From: Bacteroidetes bacterium GWA2_40_15
Lineage (GTDB): Bacteria; Bacteroidota; Bacteroidia; Bacteroidales; VadinHA17
Direction of reading: 5' to 3'
Assembly (NCBI GenBank): GCA_001768195.1
Contig: MENI01000112.1
Span: 80,261 to 144,260, forward strand
DNA length: 64,000 nt
The notes beneath the pieces were generated by a model. The model made no database searches. It saw only the letters and a list, made by a program, of their open reading frames with translations, and was not told the origin of the DNA. The translations under genes and the position numbers were made by a program. This document shows positions 36,009 to 50,702 of this stretch, piece by piece (within the stretch, counting starts at the first letter, position 1; each line of letters starts with the position of its first letter).

Positions 36009-37420
36009 AAAACCTGCTTATTATTTATCATGCTTGTGGCAGTTTCCGCCAATTGATTAAAAAACAAATCAATGTCATCTTCCTGCACATCAGAATTTGC
36101 GATAACGAGCCTTAATGCAAGTGTGTTCCCAATATACCCGTAGTTTACAATAGACTTGCCGCTCTTACGTAAATTTTCACGTAGTTCCAGATTAAATGCA
36201 TTCAGGTCAAAATCCCCTGATGGCACAAACCTGAAGCAAACAGTAAATGATTGACGAGGGATAAGCAATTCGAGGTTTGGATGGGTTTTTACTATATCTT
36301 CAGCATACTTTGCCATTGCAACTGAATTATCTAAACGATCCCTGTATCCTTTTTTGCCATAATATTTCCAGGCGAACCATAACTTTACTGCATCCACACG
36401 TCGTCCGCACTGGATTGATTTTTTACCAAGATCCTCCACAGCATCAATATCATGAAATATATAGTCAGTATTAATATCTGTAATATTCTGATAAAGAGTA
36501 GATTTTCTATTAACCAGTAGAGCAGAGCATATCAGAGGTATATTCATTAGTTTATGAGGGTTCCAGGCAAATGAATCGGTCTTTTCGATTCCCTTCATCA
36601 GATGCCGGTGCTTTTCACTGAGAATAAGAGAACCACCAAACGACCCATCAGCATGAAGCCATACATTATACTTCTTACAGATTTCTGCCATTTCATCAAT
36701 CGGGTCGTATGCTCCTGATAAAGTGGTAGCACACGTTGCTGCTACGAAAAAAGGAAGTTCACCCCTTGATACAGATTCACTCAATTTCTTTTCGAGTTCT
36801 TCAGGTATTAATCTGCCATTTTTATCTGCCTTGACTTTAATAACATTTTTAGATCCGATTCCCAGAACATTTGCAGCTGTTTCAAATGAATAATGAGCCT
36901 GTTCATTTATAAATGCTTTTAATTTCAGATTATGATCATATCCTTCGAAACGTCCTTCAGGGAATACTCTGTTTCGTGCAGAAAGCATTGCCACAAGATT
37001 GGCATTACTTCCACCGGTAACAAATATCCCGTCACCTGACTTATAACCGGCATAGCTGTTCATCAGGTTGATCATCTCTTTCTCAATCATGGTCGCAACC
37101 GGGGCAACCTCATATGTATACATTGAAGTATTGGCTACAACTGTAAAAACCTCCCCAAGAAAGGCCGGGAAATTAAAGCCGGAATATAACTGGTTCAGAA
37201 ACTGCTTATTTCCTGTTCTGACGGAATAATCAAGATATTTCTCAATGTATTCTGTAAACTTAGTTTGTGAAGCACTTTCTTCATCAACCGGTAAACTAAA
37301 TATCTCTGATAATTCACCGGGTGTTTTGAATTTCACGACAGGAGACGTATTGTCGTCATTTGAGTTAATATATTTTTCTACCCTTTCAAAGGAATACCGT
37401 AAAAGATCTTTGTTATTCAT
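36005..37420 (-). CDS. group II PLP-dependent decarboxylase, GAD/CSAD-like (candidate cysteine sulfinate decarboxylase)
   Basis: 471 aa. FLNQLYSGFNFPAFLGEVFTVVANTSMYTYEVAPV aligns by eye with animal CSAD/GAD. PLP lysine in NPHKLMN, plus WLHADGSFGG. Confidence 0.85.
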   Translation of the reverse strand: MNNKDLLRYSFERVEKYINSNDDNTSPVVKFKTPGELSEIFSLPVDEESASQTKFTEYIEKYLDYSVRTGNKQFLNQLYSGFNFPAFLGEVFTVVANTSMYTYEVAPVATMIEKEMINLMNSYAGYKSGDGIFVTGGSNANLVAMLSARNRVFPEGRFEGYDHNLKLKAFINEQAHYSFETAANVLGIGSKNVIKVKADKNGRLIPEELEKKLSESVSRGELPFFVAATCATTLSGAYDPIDEMAEICKKYNVWLHADGSFGGSLILSEKHRHLMKGIEKTDSFAWNPHKLMNIPLICSALLVNRKSTLYQNITDINTDYIFHDIDAVEDLGKKSIQCGRRVDAVKLWFAWKYYGKKGYRDRLDNSVAMAKYAEDIVKTHPNLELLIPRQSFTVCFRFVPSGDFDLNAFNLELRENLRKSGKSIVNYGYIGNTLALRLVIANSDVQEDDIDLFFNQLAETATSMINNKQVL

Positions 37421-37432
37421 TTGTTGTAATGA

Positions 37433-38143
37433 TTATCTGTAATATGCATTAATGTCTTTTTCAAACGTGCTTATGGTCTTTAACACGTCGTACCTGTTAT
37501 TTCTTAAATAATAAGGTTTGATAAGTTCAAAATAGTCAATGAGGGTTTCATCCGTATAGGTATCATAAAACTCTTCTTCCGTTTTAAGTGTTTCAGCCAT
37601 ATTCAAAAATGCAGGGCCATTAGTAGTTGCAAGCACTTTATGTTCCGGCAGAAAAACTTTTTCTCTATTGAGACTATCGTTTAAGTTTTTGTTGGAACCA
37701 TAGATATGAAGCGTCATAAAACCGGTTTTGCCTGAGTTGCCCATCATGTGAGTCAGGTCACCACAAACTGCAGCAGTCTGACCTTTTTCAAAAATATCTT
37801 TTCGTGATAATTTCAAATTGCCATACTCTGTTTCATATAATCTATGGGTAGCATTTCCAAAGAAATATACACCGCCCCATTCAGTTTCACCGTGGTTATG
37901 TATTGCGGTGAAGTCGCCAGGATCCCATGTCATTAACAGTATTCTGAATTTTTCACTTTCATAAAGTAATCTCCGGCCATAGCTTTCTGCACCCGTATGA
38001 TTGAATATGTTATAGGGGAATAGGGCATCTTCTGAAAGACCTGCTCTTACCATAACTTCAGATACAATTTCGTTAGTTACGTCTGTTACACTGTTAAGTT
38101 CGCTGGCTAAATTGACTATGCAATCTGGTAATTGATAATTCAT
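37433..38143 (-). CDS. cysteine dioxygenase type I-like cupin (Arg-type)
   Basis: 236 aa. SYGRRLLYESEKFRILLMTWDPGDFTAIHNHG ... LTHMMGN ... LHIYG gives the 3-His iron site (HxH...H), the Y-x-R substrate-carboxylate motif and the conserved Tyr of CDO. Confidence 0.7.
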   Translation of the reverse strand: MNYQLPDCIVNLASELNSVTDVTNEIVSEVMVRAGLSEDALFPYNIFNHTGAESYGRRLLYESEKFRILLMTWDPGDFTAIHNHGETEWGGVYFFGNATHRLYETEYGNLKLSRKDIFEKGQTAAVCGDLTHMMGNSGKTGFMTLHIYGSNKNLNDSLNREKVFLPEHKVLATTNGPAFLNMAETLKTEEEFYDTYTDETLIDYFELIKPYYLRNNRYDVLKTISTFEKDINAYYR

Positions 38144-38311: not shown

Positions 38312-38503
38312 TTAAATTTGTTTTGAAGGACATTTTTCTGTTCCATAAGAGCAATAAACACAACAGTCTCCCTCTTTGGGTTTAATAACAGTCTTGCAAT
38401 TTTCACACTCATAAAAATACTGACATGCATCTTCCGGCATTTTTTCTTGTTTCTTATGACCACAGACTGGACAGGTTATTACAGAATATGTTTTTAAGTT
38501 CAT
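38312..38503 (-). CDS. GDCCVxC-domain small metal/thiol protein
   Basis: 63 aa. CPVCGH ... ECENC ... EGDCCVYCSYG, the eponymous motif of the GDCCVxC (seleno)protein family. All positions here are Cys, with no TGA. Confidence 0.75.
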   Translation of the reverse strand: MNLKTYSVITCPVCGHKKQEKMPEDACQYFYECENCKTVIKPKEGDCCVYCSYGTEKCPSKQI

Positions 38504-38564
38504 GGCAAATATTTTATAATGTCCTTTACAACTTAGCTTTACATTAATGTCAAGATCAAATATT

Positions 38565-39752
38565 CTACTTCAATCGTTGCAAGTGTTCAAATGAAAAATC
38601 ACCTGTTTCAATCATTTTAAGAGTTTGTTCTATTGTCGGCCTGTCACCCCAGAATGTTCCCCTGTAGCTGAACCGCACAATACCTTCTTTGTCAATAATA
38701 ACTGTTGTCGGTCTATTTATGTATTCTGAATGAACAGCAAAGGCGAGGGGATCAGCTCCGTACATTGCTCCAATAGCTCCTGCACGGTCGAGGAGGTGAG
38801 GCCACCATATTTTCTCAGTATATGCTTTGTGAAAAGACTTTTTTGCAAACCAGTAGGAGGGATCAAGCTCTTTTCCAATCATTACTCTGCCCCGGTACCT
38901 GTCGTGTGCTTCAACTGTAAAAACCTGTACGCCCTCTTTTTCAAATTCACTCTGTATCTCCATCAGATCCTGAAATTCACCATGGCAAACAGGACACCAG
39001 TCGGCGAAAACCCAGATCAGAACTACCCACTTTTCATTTCGGAACTGACCTAATTTCCATTCTTTTCCTTCCGTATCTTCCAACTGAAAATCGGGAGCTA
39101 TGTTTCCTGTATGAACAGAATTAAAAGTCGATTCATCCAGAGAGAGAAAGGCAGAAAGCTGTTTATCCGTTGTTCCCATTTTTTTCTCAATCTGATAAAT
39201 TGCCAGCTCACACTGGTGACGTACATCTCGTGAAGGATCACTCGTTTGTTTGTTGCGAAGCAATCCGAGCGAACTCTTCGATTCAATTTGTCCGAGTGCA
39301 ATGACAGCCTGGCTGCGCACCATAGTATTTTCATCCTGCCGGACAATCTGTTCCAGACTGTTGATTGCATCGTTAGATTTTAGAATTCCAAGAGCCATGG
39401 CACAAACCTGCCTGACATACACTGAATTGTCAGCAAGGCCAATCACTATTTCCTTCATATTTTTATTTCCTGCACGCACCAAATCCCTGACAGCCAATAA
39501 GCGAACCTGCCAGTCGTCATTGTCCATATCGGCAATACCAGCCACATTTAAAGAGCGGTCTAATGTCATTGAGTTGTCTTCATTCAGGGGATTAAAATCG
39601 TGTGTTTTTACTCTTTCAAGCACATTTGGAACACTTGTATTATAAATTCTATTTTCTGTGTTGTTCTGACTAATTATGAGTGAAATCATACTGAAAAGTA
39701 TTAAAAGTACAAGCAATATTCTGAATGATCCTGAATTGGTTGATTTAATCAT
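38565..39752 (-). CDS. exported HEAT-repeat protein fused to an AhpC/TSA-type redoxin domain
   Basis: 395 aa with a signal/anchor. Four HEAT-like repeats (DWQVRLLAVRDL, SVYVRQVCAMALG, NTMVRSQAVIALG, SRDVRHQCELAI), then a thioredoxin fold with WCPVCHGEF. Confidence 0.75.
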   Translation of the reverse strand: MIKSTNSGSFRILLVLLILFSMISLIISQNNTENRIYNTSVPNVLERVKTHDFNPLNEDNSMTLDRSLNVAGIADMDNDDWQVRLLAVRDLVRAGNKNMKEIVIGLADNSVYVRQVCAMALGILKSNDAINSLEQIVRQDENTMVRSQAVIALGQIESKSSLGLLRNKQTSDPSRDVRHQCELAIYQIEKKMGTTDKQLSAFLSLDESTFNSVHTGNIAPDFQLEDTEGKEWKLGQFRNEKWVVLIWVFADWCPVCHGEFQDLMEIQSEFEKEGVQVFTVEAHDRYRGRVMIGKELDPSYWFAKKSFHKAYTEKIWWPHLLDRAGAIGAMYGADPLAFAVHSEYINRPTTVIIDKEGIVRFSYRGTFWGDRPTIEQTLKMIETGDFSFEHLQRLK

Positions 39753-39820
39753 TAGATGTGATATTAAGTTAAAAATGTAGAATATTATTCAAACCGGCAA
39801 CAAGCACCCTGCACCCGTCG

Positions 39821-40402
39821 TTACTTCAACAGTTTACTTAGTTTGGTATCTAATGCTGAACCGCGCAGGTTCTTTGCCAAAATTATTCCATTACCATCAA
39901 TAAGGAAGTTTGATGGAATGGCTTCAACTTCATAAAGTCTTGCGGCATCAGATCTCCAACCTTTAAGATCGCTTACATGACTTTCCCAGGATAGCTTATC
40001 TGATTTAATGGCACCAATCCAGCCATTTTTATCCTGGTCGAGCGAAACACTGTAAACCGTAAATCCTTTTCCACTCTTAAATGCAGCATCCTTAAAATGC
40101 TCGTATGATTTTACAAGGTTTGGATTCTCCATACGGCAGGGGGGGCACCATGACGCCCAGAAGTCAATTAACACAATCTTCCCCTTTAAGGATGAAAGCT
40201 TAACTGTCTTTCCTTCAGGAGTGTTGTATTCCATCTCAGGTGCTTTGTTGCCAATATTCAGCCCCACTGACACTTCGGTGTTAACAGGAGAAGTCTCTTC
40301 TATTATTCCCGATTCATTTCGGGGAGCGCTGTTTGCAGCGTAGAATACAGCAAAGGAGAATAATGCCGCAACACTTATTAAAGATAATTTTTTAAAATTC
40401 AT
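39821..40402 (-). CDS. TlpA/ResA-family thiol:disulfide oxidoreductase
   Basis: 193 aa with a signal peptide. FWASWCPPCRMENP. Confidence 0.85.
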   Translation of the reverse strand: MNFKKLSLISVAALFSFAVFYAANSAPRNESGIIEETSPVNTEVSVGLNIGNKAPEMEYNTPEGKTVKLSSLKGKIVLIDFWASWCPPCRMENPNLVKSYEHFKDAAFKSGKGFTVYSVSLDQDKNGWIGAIKSDKLSWESHVSDLKGWRSDAARLYEVEAIPSNFLIDGNGIILAKNLRGSALDTKLSKLLK

Positions 40403-40423
40403 GACTTTTCAATATTATATGAT

Positions 40424-40885
40424 TTAATTATAACTTTTATAATCATCAGCATAGAGAAATCTATACATATATGGATAGATTTCGCAGGCTACGCAGAATC
40501 CGAATGCACCTTCAAGGAATGAAAACAGCCCAAGTATTCCGGCAATAACTAATGAAACTGAGCTGAATGGTATCATAATCGATAATATTATCAAACCGGA
40601 AAGGATCAATCCTATTCGTGCTGCAAGGACCTTGGGAGCGGCATTAATAAAATGATCTTTTACGTGTAACCACTTAACCATGTTCTGTGATGATATTGCA
40701 ATCAGACTGTATTTTGAAAATCCGACTGACCTTAAAAAAAAGTCAATAACCAGAAATACAATTGCATAAATATTGTGAGTGACAATAAAACCAAGCAAGA
40801 GCAACACTGTTATAATTGCATTTACACGGGCAACATGTTCATTTACTTTTTTGTCAGATATGGGACATAATGCATACGTTTTCAT
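40424..40885 (-). CDS. DUF4395-like small membrane protein
   Basis: 153 aa. N-terminal CPISDKKVNEHVARVNA followed by about 4 TM helices and a C-terminal CVACE. The family name is from memory. Confidence 0.5.
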   Translation of the reverse strand: MKTYALCPISDKKVNEHVARVNAIITVLLLLGFIVTHNIYAIVFLVIDFFLRSVGFSKYSLIAISSQNMVKWLHVKDHFINAAPKVLAARIGLILSGLIILSIMIPFSSVSLVIAGILGLFSFLEGAFGFCVACEIYPYMYRFLYADDYKSYN

Positions 40886-40946
40886 AGGGCATAAGTTTTT
40901 ATCTTATAGTCGCTACTCCTTAATAATCCTGACAATTTTTTATAGA

Positions 40947-41546
40947 TTATTTAAGATTCTCAAGCACTGCCAGAAGTAATTTTGCACTTATCCTTACTTT
41001 ATAGTCGGGGTTTATATATTCAAAAGCAATAACACCATCAGGATTCACCACAAACACAGAAGGTACCGGAAGAAATCCTGTGTTTTGTCCGGCAGAATAC
41101 TCGGAAAGCATCCCGAGAGACCTTTCAGAAGCTTTGAATGCAATTCCCATTGCCTGCGCCACTGCACCGTTTCCATCAGAGTAGAGGCCATACTTAAGTT
41201 TGTTTTTCTCGCCGGAGGCAATAAGTTTTGGAGGAGCATCAGGACTGATTGCGATTAACTGGTATCCCAACTCGAGTATCTTATCCTGAATAGTCTCAAT
41301 TTCAGCTAAATGCTTGTTGCAGAATGGACACCATCCGCCACGGTAAAACAGGAGAATTGAAGGTTTACCGCCGGTAATAGTTGCAAGGGTTTCCTGTTTA
41401 CCTGCTGTTGATAAAAGTGTAATATCGGGAATTTTTTCTCCGATCAGAAGAGGCGATATATCTTCCGCCTTATCAGCGATCTGTGCGAATGAATTTAATC
41501 CGCTGATAATTGTAAAAATCCATGCTAATAATGATAATTTTTTCAT
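40947..41546 (-). CDS. exported peroxiredoxin-like redoxin (AhpC/TSA family)
   Basis: 199 aa with a signal peptide. LFYRGGWCPFCNKHL. Confidence 0.8.
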   Translation of the reverse strand: MKKLSLLAWIFTIISGLNSFAQIADKAEDISPLLIGEKIPDITLLSTAGKQETLATITGGKPSILLFYRGGWCPFCNKHLAEIETIQDKILELGYQLIAISPDAPPKLIASGEKNKLKYGLYSDGNGAVAQAMGIAFKASERSLGMLSEYSAGQNTGFLPVPSVFVVNPDGVIAFEYINPDYKVRISAKLLLAVLENLK

Positions 41547-41582
41547 CCTGATTAATTTTTAAATTTATACTATATTATAACA

Positions 41583-41594
41583 AAGCATATGCTT
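41583..41594. promoter_or_regulatory. perfect 12-bp palindrome AAGCATATGCTT, candidate TetR operator upstream of the peroxiredoxin-like gene
   Basis: Self-complementary by inspection. It lies 37-48 nt upstream of the start at 41546 and has a sibling palindrome at 42215-42226. Confidence 0.4.
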
Positions 41595-41612
41595 AGATAT
41601 ATTGCAAAAAAA

Positions 41613-42191
41613 TTATTTAAAAACTGATAATGAAACCTTAATAATGTCACGGATCTGATTACCAGGAAGTACTTTTGCACCCACTGATAATCCTTGCATA
41701 ACACCAAGAAGAAAGTTAGAGTACACATCAATATCAGTATCAGCTGAAATATCACCGGCTTCAATAGAATTCGACAATACTGTTTTAAGCATCCCTTTAA
41801 TAAACATATAATAGTTATTCAGTTCAACTGAAACTACATCATCTGCCGGATTGATTTCACCGGTACTGTTTACAACCAGGCACCCCTTGTATTTTTTACC
41901 TGTTTTCTTATGCTCCGTGAACCGGTTCAGAAAAAGTTCAAGATCCTTAAGCCTGGCTCCGGGTTTTAAAAGATCTGCATAAACATTTTTATTTACATAC
42001 TCTCTGTACTTTTTTAATGATTCAATGAAAAGATTGTGTTTATTTGAAAAACTTGAGTAAATCGAAAACTGGTTTATCCCCATCTCCTTTTCCAACATCC
42101 GAACAGACGTATTCTCATAACCATTATTCCAGAACACATGCATTGCTTTCTCAAGAACTTCATCACTATTATATAATTTATGACGGGACAT
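41613..42191 (-). CDS. TetR/AcrR-family transcriptional regulator
   Basis: 192 aa. N-terminal HTH region VLEKAMHVFWNNGYENTSVRMLEKEMGINQFSIYSSF. Confidence 0.85.
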   Translation of the reverse strand: MSRHKLYNSDEVLEKAMHVFWNNGYENTSVRMLEKEMGINQFSIYSSFSNKHNLFIESLKKYREYVNKNVYADLLKPGARLKDLELFLNRFTEHKKTGKKYKGCLVVNSTGEINPADDVVSVELNNYYMFIKGMLKTVLSNSIEAGDISADTDIDVYSNFLLGVMQGLSVGAKVLPGNQIRDIIKVSLSVFK

Positions 42192-42214
42192 ATAATTAAT
42201 TTTACTACAAAACT

Positions 42215-42226
42215 AAGCAATTGCTT
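42215..42226. promoter_or_regulatory. perfect 12-bp palindrome AAGCAATTGCTT, candidate autoregulatory TetR operator
   Basis: Self-complementary. It lies 24-35 nt upstream of the tetR start at 42191 and shares the AAGCA/TGCTT half-sites with 41583-41594. Confidence 0.45.
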
Positions 42227-42280
42227 TGATATTTCCAAAGAATTCTGAAATCAATAAGGTAATCCAACTTTTCGCTGGGT

Positions 42281-42817
42281 TTAAGGATTAATAGTTTCCA
42301 TTGCTAAATTCCCTGTACCAGGTTCTTTGCCATGAAGTTCCACTCTTGAAACGGTGGGAAGCCAGAAACTTCCGCCATTTATCTCTATAAATATCCTTGA
42401 GACCTCAACCTCTTTTTCACCTGAGATAGTAAACACCTTATAGCAATTTTCCACATTTTTCTTAAGGATAAAAGTGCGTTTATCGTATGAAACAAACTGA
42501 AAGTATATTTCATCTTCCTTTTTGAGCTCATTAAGGAATTTTATTCCATATGCATATTTCTTCTGTATCCAGGTTAAAGGTTCAACCTTGTTATTATTGG
42601 TCCTTTTTATCCAGTGAATCTCAATGGGATCTGATTTGTCAGGGTGCCCTGGCTGGTCAAAGTTGATGGAATAAATGATCTCATTGGCATCCCGGCTTCG
42701 TCCAATTTTAAATAAATCGTATTCCCAGTTATTGTATGAATTCTCCGAATTTATAAATCCGTATGAAACTGGTGCTGTAAATATCAACAGCATTATTCTG
42801 ATTAAAAATGGTTTCAT
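42281..42817 (-). CDS. hypothetical exported protein (DUF4833-like by recollection)
   Basis: 178 aa with a signal peptide. LFKIGRSRDANEIIYSIN ... IHWIKRT. Confidence 0.4.
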   Translation of the reverse strand: MKPFLIRIMLLIFTAPVSYGFINSENSYNNWEYDLFKIGRSRDANEIIYSINFDQPGHPDKSDPIEIHWIKRTNNNKVEPLTWIQKKYAYGIKFLNELKKEDEIYFQFVSYDKRTFILKKNVENCYKVFTISGEKEVEVSRIFIEINGGSFWLPTVSRVELHGKEPGTGNLAMETINP

Positions 42818-42880
42818 TTTAGTGACTTCTTACTTGAATACTGGAAACATTATCTAAAAAGGGAATATATCTAAAGCTGA

Positions 42881-43447
42881 TTATTCAGGCTTATATTCAG
42901 CAATCATAGTAATTTCGACAGTTTTTGCAATATTGGTTGAAGGTTTTCCTTTGACAAATGTGATTCCATAATCGGCCAGAGCAACGTTGAACTTACTTTG
43001 AACCTCTACTACACTACCTTTTACCTCAACAGTACCATTTTCCTTAACTGGCTTAGTTAATTCCTTAATAGTCAACTCACCCTCGAATGTGGCATTATAT
43101 GTACCATCTTTTGAAAAATCGATCTTATCAAGGTTTGTAATTTTCCCTTTTAACTTAGCTTTTGGGAACGTCTGTGTATTAAGGAAATCCTCTCCGTTAA
43201 AGTGTTTTTGCATTAATGCTTTTTCAAATTCAAAACCCTGCATAGGTACTGAAAATACCACTTCTCCGGTTTCTTTGTTGATAGTGCTTACAGAGGTGGT
43301 ATTGGTTGCCTGAATATCTTCAGCGGGAGTTGATGAGAAAAACTTAATCTGTGTTTTAGAACTTACAAGCTTTCCCGATGTTTGAGCATTTACTGTAATT
43401 GCTGCAACCGCTAATATGATTGCTGTTAAAAATGATAACTTCTTCAT
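42881..43447 (-). CDS. YceI-family periplasmic protein
   Basis: 188 aa. Signal peptide and YceI-like beta-barrel pattern (SKTQIKFFSSTPAEDIQATN ... GELTIKELTKPV). Confidence 0.7.
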   Translation of the reverse strand: MKKLSFLTAIILAVAAITVNAQTSGKLVSSKTQIKFFSSTPAEDIQATNTTSVSTINKETGEVVFSVPMQGFEFEKALMQKHFNGEDFLNTQTFPKAKLKGKITNLDKIDFSKDGTYNATFEGELTIKELTKPVKENGTVEVKGSVVEVQSKFNVALADYGITFVKGKPSTNIAKTVEITMIAEYKPE

Positions 43448-43512
43448 GATTTCAATTTTTAAATTATAATTATTTGTTTTTACTTATTTTCTATTATTTC
43501 CATTTTTTTCTT

Positions 43513-43540
43513 CGGTCTTCTGACTTCGGTCTTCTGACTT
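43513..43540. repeat. 2 x 14-nt (4 x 7-nt) tandem repeat cggtctt ctgactt, ending exactly at a stop codon
   Basis: cggtcttctgactt cggtcttctgactt. The next base (43541) is the first base of the TTA that is the stop complement of the OB-fold gene. Confidence 0.85.
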
Positions 43541-44017
43541 TTACTTTTTAACTACATCGCACTTTTCGAGTATTACATTTTCGTAAAGCTCCAGGTCACT
43601 GTCAAAAGATGCCCCTGATCGTATTACTCCTTTAATTGAAACAGTACTTCCTATTTGAAGATCATCTGCATTGTGACTGGTCTCTTTGGTGAATGCTGCA
43701 CTGACACCGGCTTTGGCATCGGATTCTTTAAGCAGGATAACTTTTTGTCCATTGAAATCATCCGATATTTTGCTGATAACGCCAGTTATTATAAGGATCT
43801 TAGAGTTGCCATCACCTGAAAGGTATTTTTTATTGGCAGCATCTTTTCCAGTCAGATATTCGGCTACAATCTGGGACCCTGTTAAAGTATAATCAACTTT
43901 TGCAGTCTGTACATTCCTGTGAGGTATATTGAACATATATATTCCGATACTTCCTCCGATAACTACACCTGCAATAATCAATATTGCTGCAATCTTTAAA
44001 ATCTTTTTCTTTTTCAT
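43541..44017 (-). CDS. membrane-anchored OB-fold (tRNA_anti-like) protein
   Basis: 158 aa. One N-terminal TM helix, then ILIITGVISKISDDFNGQKVILL, typical of this Bacteroidota family. Recollection only. Confidence 0.5.
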   Translation of the reverse strand: MKKKKILKIAAILIIAGVVIGGSIGIYMFNIPHRNVQTAKVDYTLTGSQIVAEYLTGKDAANKKYLSGDGNSKILIITGVISKISDDFNGQKVILLKESDAKAGVSAAFTKETSHNADDLQIGSTVSIKGVIRSGASFDSDLELYENVILEKCDVVKK

Positions 44018-44086
44018 AATTTGTTGGATAAATTTCTCTTATAGTCGTGAATTTTGTATAACCTGACATTGATTTTGTCTTTATTA

Positions 44087-46027
44087 TCAAATTTTTCTGA
44101 AATTCGAAATGCCTCCATTTAGAAAATTTACGTAATCTTCTATGCTTGAATCGTAACCTTTTGGAGTTGTAAGCAATTTGCCGTCATGATCTGTCAGCAC
44201 ATAGTATGGCTGTGAATTTGTTTTAAAATGTGTAGTCTGAAAATCGCTCCATTTATTCCCAATTGTTTTTATTTTCTTTCCGGTAGTTTCAGATACATAT
44301 TGTTCACTTTCTGGCAAAGGTGTTTTGTCATCAACATATAGTGAGATCAGCACATAATTATTGTTCAGAAGTCCTAAAACGGTCTTATCGCTCCAAACAT
44401 TATCTTCCATTTTCCGGCAATTAACACAACTCCAGCCTGTAAAGTCCAGAATTACCGGTTTATTCTCTTTCCTGGCGAAAGCAATTCCTTCATCATAATT
44501 GTGAAAACAATTTAAATTATGAGGACAATGGGATTCATTATCAGATATTATTGAAGCAGAATTGCTATTTGCGTTTTCTGGTCGACTTTGCAGGTTCCAA
44601 CCTTCAGTATAAAAAGCAGGAGGAGGGAAACCGCTTATCATTTTTAAAGGAGCGCCCCACATACCAGGGATAAGATATACTACAAAGCCGAACACCAGAA
44701 TGCTTGAAAGCAATCCGGAAATGGATGTGTGTTTCTGTTCGCTGTCGTGTGGTAGTCTCAATTTTCCAAGCAAATAAAACCCAAGTAAGCTGAAAATGAC
44801 TATCCACAGGGCAATAAACACTTCCCTTGTAAGGATACCCCAATGATATGCAAGGTCAACAGATGATAAGAATTTTAATGCAAGGGCAAGTTCAACAAAA
44901 CCCAAAACAACTTTTACTGAATTTAACCAGCCACCCGATTTTGGAAGTGAATTCAACCAACCCGGGAATGCTGCAAAGAGTGCAAAGGGCAATGCAAGCG
45001 CAAGAGCAAATCCAAACATGCCAATAGCCGGCCCGGTTACATCACCGTTTACAGCTGCCTGCACTAGCAGGCTCCCTATTATAGGTCCTGTACATGAAAA
45101 GGAGACTAAAGAAAGGGTAAAAGCCATAAAGAAAATTCCAATTAATCCACCCCGGTCCGATGCACGGTCGGGGGCATTTAGCCACTTACCTGGAAGGGTA
45201 ATTTCAAAAGCGCCGAAAAAGGAAACTGCAAATACCACAAAAATGAAGAAAAATGCCAGGTTCATAATTCCATTGCTGGCCAGTGCATTTAAAGCATCAG
45301 GACCAAGAGTAAGTGTAATCACTAAACCAAGAGCGACATAGATAACAATTATAGAAATGGCATAGATCAATGCATTACGGATGCCTATTGCCTTGGTTTT
45401 ACTTTGTTTGGTAAAATAGCTTACAGTTAAAGGTAACATTGGAAAGACACAAGGAGTGAGTAATGCCAGCAAACCTCCGATGAAACCTGCTAAGAATATT
45501 GCCCATCCTGTCAGAATATTTCCGGAAGGGATAAAATCCTGTTTCAGGGAACCAATCTTCTCTTTCCCCGAAGCAGCCATTACATCAACGCTGAATTCTT
45601 TTGTTTCCGGAGGCAGACACATTTCTTCACTGCAAGCCATATAAGTAATCTCAAAATTCAATTTGAATTTTTCATTTCCGCGAATTGCTATTTTTTGCCT
45701 GAACGAAGCGTTTTTTTCGAAATATGAAACGATCATATTGTCGTATGCCGCTTCTCTCTTCTGTATAGGTTGTTCTTCCTTTACAGACCCGGCAATTTCG
45801 AATGAATTGTTTGGGAGGAATTTAAATGAAGTGGCTTTCGGCCCGTTTTTGATATTTTGAGTCTGACTGTATATATGCCAGTTTTCTTCGATACTTGCTC
45901 TTATAGTGATTAGGGCATTATCGGGTGAAAGTGCGGTTACTGTAGTATTCCATTTCACCGGGTCGTGAACCTGGGAGAAGGTGTAAACAGAAACCAGCAA
46001 AGCGATTGATGTGATGAGAGCTTTCAT
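44087..46027 (-). CDS. dsbD: DsbD-family protein-disulfide reductase (N-domain + CcdA-like TMD + C-terminal thioredoxin)
   Basis: 646 aa. LLALLTPCVFPMLPLTV and a second Cys-containing helix SFSCTGPIIG. C-terminal thioredoxin domain with DFTGWSCVNCRKME. Confidence 0.85.
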   Translation of the reverse strand: MKALITSIALLVSVYTFSQVHDPVKWNTTVTALSPDNALITIRASIEENWHIYSQTQNIKNGPKATSFKFLPNNSFEIAGSVKEEQPIQKREAAYDNMIVSYFEKNASFRQKIAIRGNEKFKLNFEITYMACSEEMCLPPETKEFSVDVMAASGKEKIGSLKQDFIPSGNILTGWAIFLAGFIGGLLALLTPCVFPMLPLTVSYFTKQSKTKAIGIRNALIYAISIIVIYVALGLVITLTLGPDALNALASNGIMNLAFFFIFVVFAVSFFGAFEITLPGKWLNAPDRASDRGGLIGIFFMAFTLSLVSFSCTGPIIGSLLVQAAVNGDVTGPAIGMFGFALALALPFALFAAFPGWLNSLPKSGGWLNSVKVVLGFVELALALKFLSSVDLAYHWGILTREVFIALWIVIFSLLGFYLLGKLRLPHDSEQKHTSISGLLSSILVFGFVVYLIPGMWGAPLKMISGFPPPAFYTEGWNLQSRPENANSNSASIISDNESHCPHNLNCFHNYDEGIAFARKENKPVILDFTGWSCVNCRKMEDNVWSDKTVLGLLNNNYVLISLYVDDKTPLPESEQYVSETTGKKIKTIGNKWSDFQTTHFKTNSQPYYVLTDHDGKLLTTPKGYDSSIEDYVNFLNGGISNFRKI

Positions 46028-46051
46028 TGTAAAGTGTATTCCTGATGTTGT

Positions 46052-46369
46052 TTAAATTATATTATTCAGTCTGTTTGTAAACTCCTTTTTTGGAGCAGCA
46101 CCTTTCAGCTTGTCTACTACAACCCCGTCTTTGAAGAAAAGGATAGTGGGGATATTCATAATTCCAAATTGTGCAGCAAGAGCCTGATTGGAGTCAACAT
46201 CGACTTTGCCTACCAAAACCTTACCTGCATACTCGTTTGATAACTCTTCTACGATTGGACCAATCACTTTGCAAGGTCCGCACCATTGGGCCCAAAAATC
46301 AACTAATACAGGTTGTTTTGATTCAAGGACAACTTCCTTGAAGTTATCCACTGTTATTTCTTTTGCCAT
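46052..46369 (-). CDS. trxA: thioredoxin
   Basis: 105 aa. VLVDFWAQWCGPCK. Confidence 0.95.
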   Translation of the reverse strand: MAKEITVDNFKEVVLESKQPVLVDFWAQWCGPCKVIGPIVEELSNEYAGKVLVGKVDVDSNQALAAQFGIMNIPTILFFKDGVVVDKLKGAAPKKEFTNRLNNII

Positions 46370-46386
46370 AATTTTTTTGATTTTAA

Positions 46387-46414
46387 AAAGGCGAAACTTT
46401 TTGGTTTCGCCTTT
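46387..46414 (-). terminator. hairpin, probable terminator inside the redox island
   Basis: aaaggcgaaac (46387-46397) / loop tttttg / gtttcgccttt (46404-46414). On the minus strand the stem runs into a short U tract. It lies between the Trx-like gene and trxA. Confidence 0.45.
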
Positions 46415-46426
46415 CTGGTTAAGCTT

Positions 46427-46834
46427 TTATTTTATTTCTTTCTTTGCCGTCAGCATTGCTGCAACAAGTTCAGCATCACTACTGGCTACACTTATCTGAT
46501 TTAGTAAAGTTTTGGTCTTTGGATTGTAGAAAGATACAAGACCAGTACCCTGAACTTTTCCGGCAGCCTGCTCCAGACCAACAGATTTAAGCTCCTCGGC
46601 TGATTTATCTCTCGTCTCAGTACTGGTTAAATCATTGGCTACAAACTTAATGGCACCGTCTTTATTGTTATTCATGAAGGCGGCCATTGCTCTTTCACCA
46701 TTTGCTTGACAAACCGGGCACCAGTCTGCCTTATTAACTACTGCAACTACTTTGGGCTCTGACTGAGCCATTACTGAGGCTGATACCATTAAAGCAAGTA
46801 TCATGCTTGTGAAAATTGATTTTACTGTTTTCAT
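46427..46834 (-). CDS. exported thioredoxin-like protein
   Basis: 135 aa with a signal peptide. ADWCPVCQANG. Confidence 0.55.
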   Translation of the reverse strand: MKTVKSIFTSMILALMVSASVMAQSEPKVVAVVNKADWCPVCQANGERAMAAFMNNNKDGAIKFVANDLTSTETRDKSAEELKSVGLEQAAGKVQGTGLVSFYNPKTKTLLNQISVASSDAELVAAMLTAKKEIK

Positions 46835-46984
46835 AATTTTTGTTTTTAATATTTATAATTTTTGATAACAACCAAATTGTCGCAGAACCTGGGAAACCTG
46901 ACAAATAATTTAGAATAAATTTAAATAGCACATTTCAGCATGTTGAAATGTGCTATTAATCAGCTAAATATAAATTATATGTTA

Positions 46985-47713
46985 TTATAAATTTATATTT
47001 GATTCCAATATTTCAACAAGCTTTTCTCTGGTCAGGAGTCCACTGTGGCTGTAAATTATTTCGCCGTTTTTATACAATACAAAATATGGCACCCCTGAAA
47101 TTTTCTGCTCTTTTACAAGTTTGCTGCTGGCATCGGCATTTACTTTTATTATATTAATCTTGTTTTTATACTCAGTTTGAAGTAATTCAATAACAGGCAT
47201 CATCTGGCGACAGGGGCCACACCAGGGTGCATAATAGTCAACAAATGTGAGCGAATGGGTATGAATGAAAGCAAAAAATTCATCCGGTTCCATTTTGTTT
47301 TCGGTGTCTGGCCGGGCATTAGGTTCAACAACGACCGGTAGAGAATTAAGATTCCAGGCCATTATACCATGTTCCAGATTATACACCTCCTTGTATCCGT
47401 TCTGAGCAAGAATCTCTGCAGCTCTCTGACTGCGATAACCTGTATTGCAGTATAAATATACCGGTTGGTTTTTTGGCAGCATGAGCAATCGCTTCTTAAA
47501 ATCAGATGCGTAATAGTTTAACTGACCGGCATTTTCAATATGTCCGTTTGTAAATTCTGAGGGAGTTCTCACGTCGAGTAAACTTCCTTTGTCTCTGAGT
47601 ACAATATCACGGAACTCTGAAGGATCAAGTTGTTTAATGTAAGGTGATTGTGCCTGGCTGAATATTAAAAACATAGCTAACATTGTAAATAGAGGTAATC
47701 TGTTCATAATCAT
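46985..47713 (-). CDS. exported rhodanese-thioredoxin fusion protein
   Basis: 242 aa. Rhodanese active-site loop YCNTGYRSQRAAE, then YYAPWCGPCRQM. Confidence 0.8.
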   Translation of the reverse strand: MIMNRLPLFTMLAMFLIFSQAQSPYIKQLDPSEFRDIVLRDKGSLLDVRTPSEFTNGHIENAGQLNYYASDFKKRLLMLPKNQPVYLYCNTGYRSQRAAEILAQNGYKEVYNLEHGIMAWNLNSLPVVVEPNARPDTENKMEPDEFFAFIHTHSLTFVDYYAPWCGPCRQMMPVIELLQTEYKNKINIIKVNADASSKLVKEQKISGVPYFVLYKNGEIIYSHSGLLTREKLVEILESNINL

Positions 47714-47814
47714 ACTTTTTCATATTATGAACAAATAGTCGGGCAAAACTAAAAAACCTGACAGATCTCAGGAGTCTTATTTCTGATAAGAAATCAGGAG
47801 GTGGCGATTTTCAA

Positions 47815-49161
47815 TCAAAATTTATACCCTTGCCTTTCGACATCATTTGTTTCTACACCCAAGGCAAGGACAACCCTGTTTACAAAATTGAAATAAGAAA
47901 CAACGAGAGTGGCATCTAAAATGGCGCTATCGTTTAAACCTTTTTCTTTCAATTTATTTACTGATGAATCGTTATTAAATTGTCCAGGTGAACAGGTAAG
48001 TTTTTTGGCGAAATCGCAGAGAAGTTTTTCTCTTTCATTCAAAGCTGCATTTCCGAAATCAGAGACAAAGAGTTCAATTCTATCATGGTCTTTCCAATAG
48101 TGATTTAATGCTTCAGAATGGTGCAGAATGCAATACTCACAACCATTATTTACTGACACGACAACAGCCATCAATTCACGTTCAGATCTTGAAAGTTCCG
48201 ATTTTGAGAACATGATCTCAAGGTAAAGATCCATGTGTTTAATAATACTCTCCGGACGCAGACTCTGTATTTTATGTACATCAGCAAGCTTGCCTCTTTT
48301 TTCGATTATATCGTCGTATATTTCTTTTAATCTCCCAGATGCTTCTTCAGGAAGCATTGCAACTTGTATCCTACTGGCATAAACTATACTATCGCTTATA
48401 TTTTTGGCCTGTTCCTTTATTTTATGCTCGGCCATCACGATCTGTGTGATTTCATTGCCATAAACATTCATAGTACTTATTGAGGCTACTCCTTTGAGTG
48501 TTAAATCGAAAATCCGATCTTTTACAATGACTGTTATGTTTTTTTTCTCGCGTTTACTGATAAGTTCAAATATATCGATGTCAGAAAGTTCAGGGAAAAG
48601 TATTTTAATATTATCACCGCTTAATGATTCCTTCTCAAAAAGTATCTCCGATGCCGGATTGGCACCGGTTATTATTCCCTTTTCATCAACTCTGAACAAT
48701 GGTTCCGGATTGTGACGGGCAAAAAGCGCAAGACTCTTCATCATATCATTATCCCGTTTGGTAAATGAAGACAACGTTAAAATCTTCCAGCTGGTTTTCT
48801 TTTTGCAGTTGGGGCACTCTTCAATCTCTTCGCCAATCGATGCTTTAAAGTCCACCATCTTGCAGTTATTGCATTGAAGCATACCATCGATATTCGAAAT
48901 TTTTCCTGTTTTCAAACTGCTATTTGCAGCTACAGAAGAGAATGTTGAAACCAGGTAGGGAACCATGAAAGTCAGTAAAACCATAAACAGGTTTATGTTA
49001 TTAAATGACAGTGTAATAAAGGCCTGCGTATGATTGATGAAATTGAGAATTAATCCTACGATTATTGCGGTTCTGAACGCCCTTTTTGCCGTATTCTTTT
49101 CAAATGCAAGTTGGAGGTAATAATTTGATACAGAATGTGAATGATCCATAAATATCGGCAC
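47815..49161 (-). CDS. composite membrane protein: NrtS-like 2-TM N-terminus, CxxC...CxxC zinc ribbon, PAS-like domain, first strand of a SpoIIE domain, then an AhpD-like (carboxymuconolactone decarboxylase / peroxidase-related) domain
   Basis: 448 aa. CNNCKM...CPNCKK. The linker ...SIVYASRIQVAMLPEE normally precedes a PP2C domain, but here it runs directly into ASGRLKEIYDDIIEKRGKLADV...VSVNNGCEYCILHH, the AhpD-like CxxC. Confidence 0.6.
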   Translation of the reverse strand: MPIFMDHSHSVSNYYLQLAFEKNTAKRAFRTAIIVGLILNFINHTQAFITLSFNNINLFMVLLTFMVPYLVSTFSSVAANSSLKTGKISNIDGMLQCNNCKMVDFKASIGEEIEECPNCKKKTSWKILTLSSFTKRDNDMMKSLALFARHNPEPLFRVDEKGIITGANPASEILFEKESLSGDNIKILFPELSDIDIFELISKREKKNITVIVKDRIFDLTLKGVASISTMNVYGNEITQIVMAEHKIKEQAKNISDSIVYASRIQVAMLPEEASGRLKEIYDDIIEKRGKLADVHKIQSLRPESIIKHMDLYLEIMFSKSELSRSERELMAVVVSVNNGCEYCILHHSEALNHYWKDHDRIELFVSDFGNAALNEREKLLCDFAKKLTCSPGQFNNDSSVNKLKEKGLNDSAILDATLVVSYFNFVNRVVLALGVETNDVERQGYKF

Positions 49162-49164
49162 ATT

Positions 49165-49428
49165 TTATTTTGATTTTTCTATTTTCGCCATAATTTCCTT
49201 CTTGAAATCATTTAAATCAAAAGCAATTTCATCTTGAGGTACTGAACTTCCCAATGCTTTATCGAGAACGATACTTTGCTTTTCATACATCGTGCATGCA
49301 TCACACATTGCTTTATGTACTTTTAGCTGTATCTTTTCTGTAAGGGTCAATTTAAAATGATGTCTTTTTTCAATCAGCTCAGTTGCCTTAAGACACGATA
49401 AAAACATTTTATTCATGAACTTTTTCAT
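49165..49428 (-). CDS. soluble zinc-binding (ZAS-type) anti-sigma factor
   Basis: 87 aa with no TM segment. Contains C12 ... H38-x3-C42-x2-C45 (VHKAMCDAC). Its start overlaps the sigma gene stop by 4 nt. Confidence 0.65.
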   Translation of the reverse strand: MKKFMNKMFLSCLKATELIEKRHHFKLTLTEKIQLKVHKAMCDACTMYEKQSIVLDKALGSSVPQDEIAFDLNDFKKEIMAKIEKSK

Positions 49429-49991
49429 CTTACATTTATTTTTTTAAACCAATTATTCTCAACACATTCCCTGAGCGCAACTTTTGCCCTGTGAATTATC
49501 TGCCATAAATTAGTAGGAGCAATGTTCAATTCCTGACAAATTTCTTCGCCGCTTTTTTCACTAAGGTATTTTAGCTTTACACATATGTTCCAGTTTTCTG
49601 GCAAGTCATCAAGGCATTTATTAAGAATTTCCTGAAAGTCATTATCGTCAAGCAGGTTTTTTTCTTCTTCATGCCAGTCTTTTGGCTTTTTATCAGATAT
49701 CCAGGAGCCATCCTCATCAAAAAATGCTGATAGTGATTGATTGTCAATGCTTGCAGGTTGATTTATCTTTCGACGGTAGTGATCAATAATTTTATGGTTC
49801 AGGATAGAAAACAGCCATGTTTTTGGTGCGCTGTCACCTTTGAAACCATCTATTTTCTCGGCTGCAGCAAGGAATGTATCCTGAACCAGGTCTTTAGCCA
49901 GTTCTGAATCCGATACCTTATGGAATGCCCATGAGTATAGTTCTGAGGTATAGGATTCGACCCATTGTGATAATCTTGTTTCTCCAGTCAT
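49425..49991 (-). CDS. ECF (group IV) RNA polymerase sigma-70 factor
   Basis: 188 aa. Region 2 (DLVQDTFLAAAEKIDGF) and region 4 HTH (SGEEICQELNIAPTNLWQIIHRAKVALRE). Confidence 0.9.
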   Translation of the reverse strand: MTGETRLSQWVESYTSELYSWAFHKVSDSELAKDLVQDTFLAAAEKIDGFKGDSAPKTWLFSILNHKIIDHYRRKINQPASIDNQSLSAFFDEDGSWISDKKPKDWHEEEKNLLDDNDFQEILNKCLDDLPENWNICVKLKYLSEKSGEEICQELNIAPTNLWQIIHRAKVALRECVENNWFKKINVR

Positions 49992-50344
49992 AATAAGTAA
50001 AAAGCTAAAAATAGTAATTACTCATCGATAATTGTCCAACATACTGAGTTTATTAAGCTTTATGTAAACAAGAAACAATATATATGCATAAAACTATTGT
50101 AAGTTTATAGAATATAGGTATTAAGTGGTAGATGAAGAATATGTTATAAACTAAAACGAAAATAAATATGATCTTTTTTAAATTCATATATTATAGAAAA
50201 AATTTGTGGCAGATTTTGCGAATTTTGTGGCATAATGCACAAAACCTAATGATAATCAAGAGGTTACAGATGTCTAAGAGCGATGCGGACGGGATTGGCT
50301 TTGCCGGACCCTTTCATCCTGAGGTTACCCGGGCGAATGAAAAC

Positions 50345-50370
50345 AAAAAATGCTGCAAGGCAGCATTTTT
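50345..50370 (-). terminator. rho-independent terminator downstream of tRNA-Asp (symmetric, could act on both strands)
   Basis: aaaaaa tgctgc aag gcagca ttttt. The A-run gives the U-tail on the minus strand. Confidence 0.65.
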
Positions 50371-50381
50371 GTTTTCGTTTG

Positions 50382-50455
50382 CGGTGCGGACGGGACTCGA
50401 ACCCGCGACCCACGGCGTGACAGGCCGTTATTCTAACCAACTGAACTACCGCACC
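50382..50455 (-). tRNA. tRNA-Asp (anticodon GTC), no encoded CCA
   Basis: Reverse complement reads GGTGCGG TAGTTCAGTTGGTTAGAATA ACGGC CTGTCAC GCCGT GGGTC GCGGG TTCGAGT CCCGT CCGCACC G. This folds as a cloverleaf with a 7-bp acceptor stem, anticodon loop CT-GTC-AC and a T-loop TTCGAGT. Confidence 0.9.
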
Positions 50456-50563
50456 ATTTATTGAGCTGCAAAATTAATCTAATTTTTAATTATGCAAAAT
50501 ATATCTTGCTAAAAAATTAGTCAATAAAGTCGATAAAGTCTTTTAACATTTTAATTTTAATTT

Positions 50564-50593
50564 CCGACTTCCGACTTCCGACTTCTTACTTCC
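50564..50593. repeat. heptanucleotide tandem repeat (ccgactt) x3 plus a degenerate unit
   Basis: ccgactt ccgactt ccgactt cttactt cc, in the gap between tRNA-Asp and the CotH gene. Confidence 0.85.
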
Positions 50594-50702
50594 AATTAAT
50601 TATAGTATTTTTATCCTCTATTCATTTGACATTCAACATGAAATCAGACCGGTACTGTCTTAAAATCACTATTTTAAATTCAGCTTTTGATCTTTACTAA
50701 TA

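Follow-up and report, generated by a model that had tools for sequence, protein, structure and literature searches.

A candidate extracytoplasmic function sigma factor regulon for thiol-redox functions directed to the envelope in an uncultured member of the Bacteroidota

A 64,000-nucleotide stretch of Bacteroidetes bacterium GWA2_40_15 (assembly GCA_001768195.1, contig MENI01000112.1, positions 80,261–144,260; hereafter the window) contains, between positions 38312 and 49991, a block of thioredoxin-fold and other redox genes headed by the genes for an extracytoplasmic function (ECF) sigma factor and a small anti-sigma factor. We consider it probable that this segment is the chromosomal core of the regulon of that sigma factor, arranged in operons led by five copies of a common promoter motif (P1–P5) and held in check by an anti-sigma factor of the thiol-stress type. 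The source population, which belongs to the uncultured Bacteroidota, recurs in groundwater and sediment metagenomes (e.g. GCA_001768485.1 and JGI 3300025010). Coordinates are those of the window, the genes and candidate promoters described below lie on its minus strand, and related loci are designated by L numbers.

Results

A candidate promoter motif shared by operons of the cluster

Comparison of the regions upstream of three genes in ten related loci, namely those encoding a secreted rhodanese–thioredoxin fusion (Rho-Trx), a secreted divergent thioredoxin-fold protein (TrxL) and a membrane-anchored OB-fold protein (OB), revealed a bipartite ECF-type element, TGTCAGG-N14/15-CGAC(T). The pattern TGTCAGG-N14/15-CGAC occurs exactly five times in the window, against 0.06 expected, always on the minus strand, in intergenic DNA and 20–130 nt before a start codon. 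P1 (47738–47763, N15) precedes Rho-Trx and occupies the same position in L016–L019 and L021; P2 (46879–46903, N14) precedes TrxL; P3 (44044–44068, N14) precedes the OB-fold gene; P4 (40909–40934, N15) precedes a DUF4395 gene; and P5 (38275–38299, N14), located 12 nt past the stop codon of the GDCCVxC gene, precedes a gene for a cupin resembling cysteine dioxygenase (CDO-like), an arrangement also found in L011. The preliminary description of this DNA had placed the genes under the ECF sigma/anti-sigma pair, had called for a search for a repeated ECF-type promoter motif and had taken the lack of a common motif as a sign that the proposal was wrong; the motif is present, with the five intergenic copies and one more inside the sigma gene.

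Beyond the window, the motif accompanies homologues of the pair in some 80 loci. The eleven loci with both the cluster and the closest DsbD homologues (L011–L021) contain 30 matches in 158 kb, all co-oriented, as opposed to two matches in 1.19 Mb for 69 loci with more distant DsbD homologues and no cluster (L022–L090). Likewise, 71 metagenomic loci retrieved with the sigma protein as query contain 58 matches in 493 kb, of which 57 are on the strand of the sigma gene; in the loci longer than 4 kb, all but three matches lie downstream of the sigma/anti-sigma pair. The overall enrichment is about 100-fold in 80+ related loci. The spacing is 14 nt at 53 sites and 15 nt at 35 sites, and the extended consensus reads ttTGTCAGGa/t...CGACTAt. 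A conserved −35 element, a fixed spacing and a −10 element of the CGT/CGA type, repeated in 88 further co-oriented copies in related loci, are the features of an ECF promoter; as judged from these comparisons, the TGTCAGG-CGAC pattern is the signature of an ECF regulon, and we infer that the sigma factor of this cluster reads it.

The first gene after the motif in relatives (n = 95) most often encodes Rho-Trx (17 cases), TrxL (16) or OB (16), followed by DsrE (6), a secreted Trx-like protein (5) and a protein with a type IX secretion system (T9SS) tail (4); FMN reductase, gnd/zwf and CDO-like genes are also found. The redox/NADPH genes appear in two settings: gnd-zwf follows a motif copy in L021 (14411–16908), and in L163 (6822–9079) the sigma gene is directly preceded by zwf-pgl. 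The T9SS-tail protein, which measures about 725–745 aa and lacks further Pfam domains, is often among the motif-driven genes of relatives (L011:3802–5985, L018:2679–4853, L021:12028–14265, L112, L128 and L149) and is missing from the window.

Note that several other searches were carried out. When the DNA preceding the sigma gene was aligned globally with MAFFT for four loci, the sequences proved too divergent and gave no motif, and an exhaustive search for exact 5-mer/4-mer bipartite elements upstream of four sigma genes found none common to them. Scanning the window with the sigma-70 consensus gave 77 matches against 59 expected, the consensus being uninformative for Bacteroidota. A relaxed match, TGTCAGG-N14-CGTC (51381–51405, minus strand), lies antisense in a CotH gene and points toward the tRNA-Asp and sigma genes; it is compatible with chance, about 0.4 such matches being expected, on a rough estimate, among the other TGTCAGG copies. 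A literature search retrieved no matching description of the motif or of a Bacteroidota ECF/thioredoxin context, and the main text of PMC7826278 mentions no ECF group with a thioredoxin/DsbD context.

The sigma/anti-sigma pair

The sigma factor (188 aa, 49425–49991) matches Pfam Sigma70_r2 (4.6e-16) and Sigma70_r4_2 (1.7e-7). It consists of regions 2 and 4 only, as do ECF (group 4) sigma factors, and scores 91 bits with TIGR02937 (sigma70-ECF, cut-off 42.9); its nearest NCBIfam model, TIGR02943, gives 148 bits, below the cut-off of 162. The region upstream of the sigma gene in the window contains no TGTCAGG-CGAC motif, and only the approximately 45 nt that precede the ATG are conserved with close relatives; the gene seems to be driven by a short conserved promoter of the housekeeping type.

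The anti-sigma factor is a soluble protein of 87 aa (49165–49428) whose ATG overlaps the sigma stop codon (ATGA, 4 nt, 49425–49428). The pairing of the two genes is kept in all of the approximately 40 loci with enough sequence. The protein carries a C-x25-HxxxCxxC motif, the four residues of which (C12, H38, C42 and C45) never vary among 61 homologues taken from the loci and 56 taken from databases. The family comprises at least 427 homologues, all from environmental metagenome-assembled genomes (MAGs), all named 'hypothetical' and none with a Pfam domain. The NCBIfam antisigmaE model matches with E = 4e-11 and 42.6 bits, below its cut-off of 50, and a PDB sequence search gave no matches. The preliminary description had called this protein a zinc-associated anti-sigma (ZAS) factor: the HxxxCxxC motif with its upstream Cys and the gene context agree with this label, whereas the residues that determine the redox response of RsrA are not conserved. 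By analogy with RsrA, thiol oxidation would be the trigger to which the anti-sigma factor responds.

A candidate promoter inside the sigma gene

The sixth-best match to the motif position weight matrix in the window, TGTCAGG-N15-CTAC (49513–49538), lies within the codons for sigma region 4.2. More specifically, its TGTCAGG (49532–49538) falls in the codons for ICQELNIAPTN, about 85–100 nt before the anti-sigma ATG. We first read it as a coding coincidence and dropped this reading after a codon test. In a codon alignment of 61 distinct sigma homologues, the only columns without synonymous variation among the 70 degenerate columns with a conserved residue are those of C152 and Q153, which encode the −35 element (TGT in 59/59 and CAG in 56/56 sequences, respectively). 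By comparison, the other Cys columns use TGT in 56–66% of sequences and the other Gln columns CAG in 53–89%, and the Leu, Ile and Glu codons neighbouring the −35 vary freely. The codon that provides the second base of the −10 element always ends in T or G, never in A or C, whereas, at the Pro codons outside this site, 49–69% of sequences have a final A or C. In the distant homologue L150, the embedded −35 is lost (TGTAAGG) and a full motif is found upstream of the sigma gene instead. We take these data to mean that the sigma factor would drive expression of its anti-sigma factor from a promoter located within its own gene.

A gene fusion in the slot after the anti-sigma gene

The next gene (47815–49161) encodes a protein of 448 aa (444 aa if read from the ATG at 49149), in which an NrtS-like transmembrane (TM) region, a Zn ribbon, a PAS-like region and the first ~20 aa of a PP2C/SpoIIE domain are followed by an AhpD-like CMD domain (CEYC). 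In L092/L093, whose sigma factor is 85% identical, the anti-sigma gene is followed by a gene for a 501-aa protein with the NrtS-like TM, Zn ribbon, PAS-like and PP2C-SpoIIE regions and, 10 nt further, by a separate CMD gene (186 aa). The protein of the window corresponds to residues 1–272 of this sensor joined to residues ~12–186 of the CMD protein: its 272 N-terminal residues are 47–90% identical to the sensor PP2C phosphatases of relatives, and its 176 C-terminal residues are 65–82% identical to the stand-alone CMD protein, with the CxxC kept. BLASTN comparison with L092:1275–3351 places the deletion junction at an 8-bp microhomology common to the sensor-PP2C and CMD genes (CCTGAAGA, 48344–48351, minus strand); relative to L092, ~729 bp are missing in frame, which removes the PP2C domain.

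The NrtS-TM-ZnR-PAS-CMD architecture is found only in the cluster of this species. In other lineages (L162, L163 and L164), the same membrane domain and the same CMD are joined at other junctions, in the same slot after the anti-sigma gene, and the products measure 269–279 aa, 301 aa, or 302–305 aa with a decayed Zn ribbon. The phosphatase has therefore been lost several times, with in-frame rescue of the AhpD-like gene. Thus, the membrane sensor–AhpD 'chimera' that had been noted from the sequence does exist, but as the product of a lineage-specific deletion and not as an ancestral design.

Which sigma factor, and which signal?

Several observations weigh against the regulatory scheme that emerges from these data. 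The assignment of the sigma factor to the motif rests on co-occurrence, and the motif-bearing clusters of L011, L016 and L018 show no sigma gene within the retrieved 10 kb. The site embedded in the sigma gene reads CTAC, not CGAC. As to the anti-sigma factor, Pfam zf-HC2 does not match it (no Pfam match at E < 0.01), and its AlphaFold2 (AF2) model, which has three helices and a pTM of 0.40, gives no significant Foldseek match and no match to an anti-sigma domain in the PDB. The residues on which the redox sensitivity of RsrA depends, E39, E40, L45 and E46, which have been defined only in actinomycetes (PMC3177212), are replaced by A40, M41, T46 and M47 (HKAMCDACTM), and many ZAS proteins are not redox sensors. 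Finally, the membrane sensor PP2C that follows the anti-sigma gene in relatives suggests an additional or alternative input, which has been lost in this genome.

The motif-bearing clusters with no sigma gene nearby, together with the lack of a motif upstream of the sigma gene in the window, could mean that the motif is read by a different sigma factor or DNA-binding protein and that the ECF/anti-sigma pair is a mere neighbour or member of the regulon. We regard this as very improbable. As is typical of ECF promoters, the motif is strand-specific and bipartite, its spacing does not depart from 14/15 nt, and its CGAC box resembles a −10 element placed at the distance of a promoter; nearly every sigma-query locus longer than 4 kb has co-oriented motifs just downstream; the −35 inside the sigma gene is under selection; and the L150 motif stands in the classical autoregulatory position.

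As to the signal, the same regulon could be induced by one particular stress on the envelope or one involving sulfur or metal(loid)s (sulfide, polysulfide, selenium, tellurium, mercury or copper), with the CHCC residues being only structural and the input coming through another component, in relatives the NrtS-like sensor PP2C. This alternative would explain the absence of the RsrA-type redox determinants from the anti-sigma factor and the presence of the sensor PP2C after the anti-sigma gene in L021, L092/93, L101/104 and L113. It also accords with a regulon rich in rhodaneses, to which relatives add DsrE, double-rhodanese and NDH2/SQR-like genes, and with the name '(seleno)protein' that NCBIfam gives to the GDCCVxC, SelL-related and AhpD-related families. 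However, the PP2C is dispensable, being deleted here and independently elsewhere and missing from many loci; none of the four putative Zn ligands varies in the anti-sigma factor; and TrxA, DsbD and the zwf/gnd genes of relatives are classic outputs of thiol-oxidative stress. We hold a trigger of this other kind to be rather unlikely and retain the combination of ECF control with a thiol-stress-type anti-sigma factor as the preferred interpretation.

Operons and gene content

The 16 minus-strand open reading frames (ORFs) that had been listed between 38312 and 49991 are all present, with domains that agree with Pfam and NCBIfam, and their translations contain the CxxC motifs reported earlier (WCGPC twice, WCPPC, WCPFC, WCPVC twice, SCVNC and the AhpD CEYC) as well as the rhodanese CNTGYR loop and GDCCVYC. 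One more motif, a C-terminal CVAC (GFCVACEIY) in the DUF4395 protein, had not been counted. The run of same-strand genes spans 27476–50455 and thus exceeds the limits first given to the block. An Rfam scan of the 34–51.5 kb region matched nothing but the tRNA described below.

Rho-Trx (46985–47713; CNTGYR loop and WCGPC, Pfam) is followed by a terminator-like hairpin with a 14-bp stem (46924–46957, minus strand). TrxL (135 aa, 46427–46834, WCPVC) has no Pfam match; its thioredoxin fold was recognized in an AF2 model (pLDDT 83, pTM 0.74) that Foldseek matches to thioredoxins with a probability of 1.0. In L092 (4193–5150), the closest relative, two TrxL paralogues stand in tandem, 53% and 93% identical to the one in the window. 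Next come a cytoplasmic thioredoxin, TrxA (46052–46369, WCGPC, Pfam Thioredoxin 5.6e-33), and a 646-aa DsbD (44087–46027) with the three expected domains (Pfam DsbD_N, DsbD_TM and Thioredoxin_7): CSEEMC is found in the N-terminal domain, the TM cysteines lie in LTPCVFP and SFSCTGP, and the C-terminal Trx-like domain carries SCVNC.

A hairpin with an 11-bp stem and a TTTTT tract lies between TrxL and trxA (46387–46414, minus strand) and could act as a partial terminator or attenuator. Its position is kept in 11 loci, and four of its pairs show compensatory changes (G:C to A:U); L017 has a different hairpin at this spot. Since the hairpin ends ~17 nt before the trxA ATG, TrxA-DsbD must be expressed by read-through, unless the hairpin is part of a leader. 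The simplest reading is that it is a partial terminator that sets the ratio of TrxL to TrxA/DsbD.

Downstream of P3 are the tRNA_anti-like OB-fold protein (43541–44017, membrane-anchored, Pfam PF12869), a secreted YceI-like protein (42881–43447) and a secreted DUF4833 protein (42281–42817), the last two identified with Pfam. P4 leads the DUF4395 membrane protein (40424–40885, Pfam; CVAC in the translation), a secreted TlpA-like thiol:disulfide oxidoreductase (39821–40402, WCPPC, Pfam), a secreted protein with HEAT repeats and an AhpC/TSA redoxin domain (HEAT-redoxin, 38565–39752, WCPVC; Pfam, with a weak match to the NCBIfam SelL-related redox protein) and the GDCCVxC domain protein (63 aa, 38312–38503, NCBIfam NF041374, 1.2e-29). 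The DUF4395 protein also bears a weak likeness to the TM domain of YgaP. Signal peptides were judged by eye only. Because of its domains and of these N-terminal signal or anchor sequences, an envelope-directed reducing system fed by DsbD, as the preliminary description had it, is a reasonable reading of the gene set.

Between the P3 and P4 groups lie a TetR-family regulator (41613–42191) and Prx, a secreted peroxiredoxin-like AhpC/TSA protein (40947–41546, WCPFC), both assigned with Pfam. Neither gene is preceded by the sigma motif. Each has instead a palindrome upstream, namely the candidate operators O1 (AAGCAATTGCTT, 42215–42226) before TetR and O2 (AAGCATATGCTT, 41583–41594) before Prx, neither of which has a strand assigned; they are the only two copies of AAGCA-N2-TGCTT in the window, against 0.16 expected. 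No TetR gene lies between DUF4833/YceI and Prx in the related loci that were examined. The TetR-Prx pair looks like an inserted module under separate regulation, with its own candidate operators. The earlier view that the block comprises several transcription units, with an internal hairpin and a TetR regulator that has operators of its own, is supported. Of the 16-gene block that had been placed under the sigma factor, TetR-Prx lack the motif.

The boundary that had been drawn at 38312 does not hold, as the motif-defined regulon runs on to 35025. P5 precedes a CDO-like cupin (37433–38143), a PLP-dependent decarboxylase akin to cysteine sulfinic acid decarboxylase (CSAD-like, 36005–37420) and a protein with TseH-like and DUF6695 domains (35025–36008, Pfam), a trio that likewise follows a motif in L011. 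The similarity of the cupin to CDO is weak (Pfam CDO_I E = 0.002; best PDB match B. subtilis CDO, E = 7e-7). The decarboxylase, also recognized by Pfam, finds human CSAD as its best PDB match (2jis, 3.6e-99), with GAD close behind (3e-93). The adjacent CDO-like and CSAD-like genes may form a hypotaurine/taurine-type branch under P5. In L011, L017, L018, L099, L113, L122 and L135, too, a TseH-like gene stands at the far end of the cluster; in relatives (e.g. L017:12827–15005), genes of the DinB and TANGO2 families precede it.

Across relatives, the TrxL-TrxA-DsbD core, mostly together with OB-YceI, is kept around DsbD homologues of at least 69% identity. Homologues of 60% identity or less occur without the cluster, three of them retaining only a weak TrxL-like neighbour. 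The genes found between the conserved modules form a highly mosaic set. In L012 (4132–8346), L122, L124 and L128, the motif-bearing cluster includes genes for two further proteins, one with a double rhodanese and the other an EgtD-like histidine methyltransferase (Methyltransf_33); in L012 there is, in addition, a fused OpuAC-permease/ABC pair similar to ergothioneine transporters. These genes hint at a link to a low-molecular-weight thiol.

Is the cluster an island?

A tRNA-Asp gene (GTC anticodon, 50381–50455, minus strand; ARAGORN, Rfam tRNA 70 bits) lies 390 nt upstream of the sigma gene, in the orientation of the cluster, and the preliminary description had seen the block as an island adjoining it. 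The 12-kb block would then have been acquired horizontally and integrated at tRNA-Asp, the integrase having since been lost. A 15-nt copy of the 3' end of the tRNA (TCCCGTCCGCAtCGC, 50280–50294, minus strand; two matches against 0.05 expected), located 86 nt downstream of the tRNA, fits this scenario and is possibly the old att scar of a past integration or excision. A perfect hairpin with an 11-bp stem (50346–50370) separates the tRNA 3' end (50381–50395) from this copy. However, no repeat of the tRNA 3' end bounds the block, the copy at 50280–50294 being the only one in the 64 kb, and no integrase, transposase or conjugation gene is found within ~10 kb of the block.

The GC content is 0.36–0.38 across 35–50 kb against 0.39–0.44 elsewhere, and the GC content at third codon positions (GC3) is about 0.33 against about 0.41, which makes them lower by about 3–5 and about 8 points, respectively. 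The AT-richness noticed by eye in the preliminary description is thus real (0.36–0.38 as compared to 0.42–0.44 at 20–33 kb), but it is modest and does not coincide with the block: the low-GC3 zone (35–54.7 kb) takes in the flanking RsmD-like methyltransferase and DUF3822 genes, and the strongest tetranucleotide outlier is elsewhere (z of 2.75 at 28–33 kb, at most 2.0 in the block).

L006 encodes the same DsbD, without a single difference; it matches the window at 100% identity inward of the tRNA-Asp 5' end and is unrelated upstream, a breakpoint that is due either to a real rearrangement at the tRNA or to a join made in assembly where a tRNA is repeated. In the compared segments (L006:1050–1785, window 49985–50720), a Metallophos gene takes the place upstream of the tRNA that CotH has in the window. 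The homology of relatives to the window begins ~45 nt before the sigma ATG, and what precedes the sigma gene differs, with a tRNA-Leu in L093 and a histidine-kinase gene in L091. In L021 (250–1463), a tRNA-Ser and then a truncated tyrosine integrase (Arm-DNA-bind_5 and SAM_5, no catalytic domain) lie immediately before the sigma gene, and no other copy of the cluster was seen to have a mobility remnant beside it. Family labels vary among the closest DsbD relatives, but the taxonomy labels of MAGs are unreliable. No empty site was found among the loci compared (the window, L006, L091, L093 and L021, which differ upstream). Conversely, the TrxL-TrxA-DsbD-OB-YceI order, with TseH-like nearby, is kept across many Bacteroidota at 50–78% identity, which fits vertical descent with local gene turnover. 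On balance, the island at tRNA-Asp appears improbable. In our reading, the modular regulon has resided in the genome for a long time, with frequent rearrangement and occasional relocation of the cluster, and is not a recent island bounded at 38312 and 49991.

Discussion

We propose the following scheme. The sigma factor would be made constitutively and held by the translationally coupled Zn-CHCC anti-sigma factor. Thiol-reactive stress (oxidants, electrophiles or reactive sulfur species) would modify the Zn-bound thiols and release the sigma factor; this step is drawn by analogy with SigR-RsrA, and the signal is uncertain. The freed sigma factor would direct RNA polymerase to P1–P5 and to the embedded site. 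P1 would then drive Rho-Trx; P2, TrxL and, past the hairpin, TrxA-DsbD; P3, OB-YceI-DUF4833; P4, DUF4395-TlpA-HEAT-redoxin-GDCCVxC; and P5, the CDO-like, CSAD-like and TseH-like genes. The weaker embedded copy would drive the anti-sigma gene and the downstream fusion gene, giving negative feedback with no auto-amplification of the sigma factor, so that the induced anti-sigma factor ends the response. TrxA and DsbD may pass electrons across the inner membrane to the secreted TrxL, Rho-Trx, TlpA-like, HEAT-redoxin and Prx-like proteins in the periplasm, and the OB-YceI-DUF4833 and CDO/CSAD/TseH-like branches, whose roles are weakly inferred, might add envelope and small-molecule functions.

A broader proposition, which we put forward tentatively and with some doubt, is that this cluster represents an uncharacterised, widespread family of Bacteroidota ECF sigma factors whose −35 element is written into the region 4.2 codons and drives the anti-sigma gene, thereby providing negative feedback without positive autoregulation. 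The anti-sigma factor would represent a new CHCC family with no Pfam model. The pair would govern a regulon for thiol and sulfur defence directed to the periplasm, an envelope-facing Gram-negative counterpart of SigR-RsrA, that has been remodelled repeatedly by independent in-frame deletions fusing the membrane domain of a sensor phosphatase to an AhpD-like enzyme.

The regulation of thiol and oxidative stress in Bacteroidota beyond gut Bacteroides is poorly known. What emerges here is a promoter motif, a family of sigma/anti-sigma pairs with 427+ members, all unannotated, and a core regulon made of Rho-Trx, TrxL, TrxA-DsbD and OB-YceI, all of which are open to direct tests in cultivable relatives such as Draconibacterium and Prolixibacteraceae. 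A functional context is also given to DUF4833, DUF4395, the tRNA_anti-like OB anchor, GDCCVxC and TseH-like/DUF6695 proteins, which become part of a single stress response. The candidate embedded promoter would be a clean example of a selected regulatory element within a coding sequence, and the fusions that deletion has produced repeatedly serve as natural experiments in the tethering of domains.

Of the known systems, SigR-RsrA of Streptomyces coelicolor, like the mycobacterial SigH-RshA, also pairs an ECF sigma factor with a small, soluble, co-transcribed anti-sigma factor and governs a thioredoxin-centred regulon. The spacing of C12/H38/C42/C45 in the anti-sigma factor described here equals that of C11/H37/C41/C44, the ligands proposed for RsrA (PMC3177212). 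The two systems differ in phylum and in promoter motif, the anti-sigma factor described here has no detectable sequence similarity to any solved structure, and the redox-determinant residues are not kept. In addition, the output is here mostly periplasmic (DsbD, secreted Trx-fold, rhodanese and Prx-like proteins), and feedback would come from the promoter inside the sigma gene, in place of a sigma-dependent promoter upstream of it as in the SigR system.

The pathways fed by DsbD or CcdA, such as TrxA-DsbD-DsbC/DsbG/CcmG of E. coli and TlpA/ResA, resemble the cluster in that trxA directly precedes a three-domain DsbD and that secreted CxxC proteins are candidate acceptors. Here, however, DsbD appears as a dedicated second copy type under the control of a stress sigma factor, its partners are unusual (TrxL, Rho-Trx, the OB-fold anchor, YceI and DUF4833), and there are no cytochrome c maturation genes. 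RsbU/SpoIIE-type PP2C sensors and the AhpD/CMD 'peroxidase-related' proteins (TIGR01926) each match one half of the fusion protein, except that the PP2C catalytic domain is deleted. Within the Bacteroidota, the EcfO-Reo pair of Bacteroides fragilis, on which Ndamukong et al. reportedly published in 2013, is an ECF sigma/anti-sigma pair reported to be tied to oxidative stress; homologues of the present anti-sigma factor are found only in environmental MAGs. In sum, the system would work as a SigR-RsrA pair coupled to a DsbD pathway, from which it differs by a new promoter motif, the unannotated anti-sigma family, the periplasm-facing output, the candidate embedded feedback promoter and the recurrently deleted accessory sensor.

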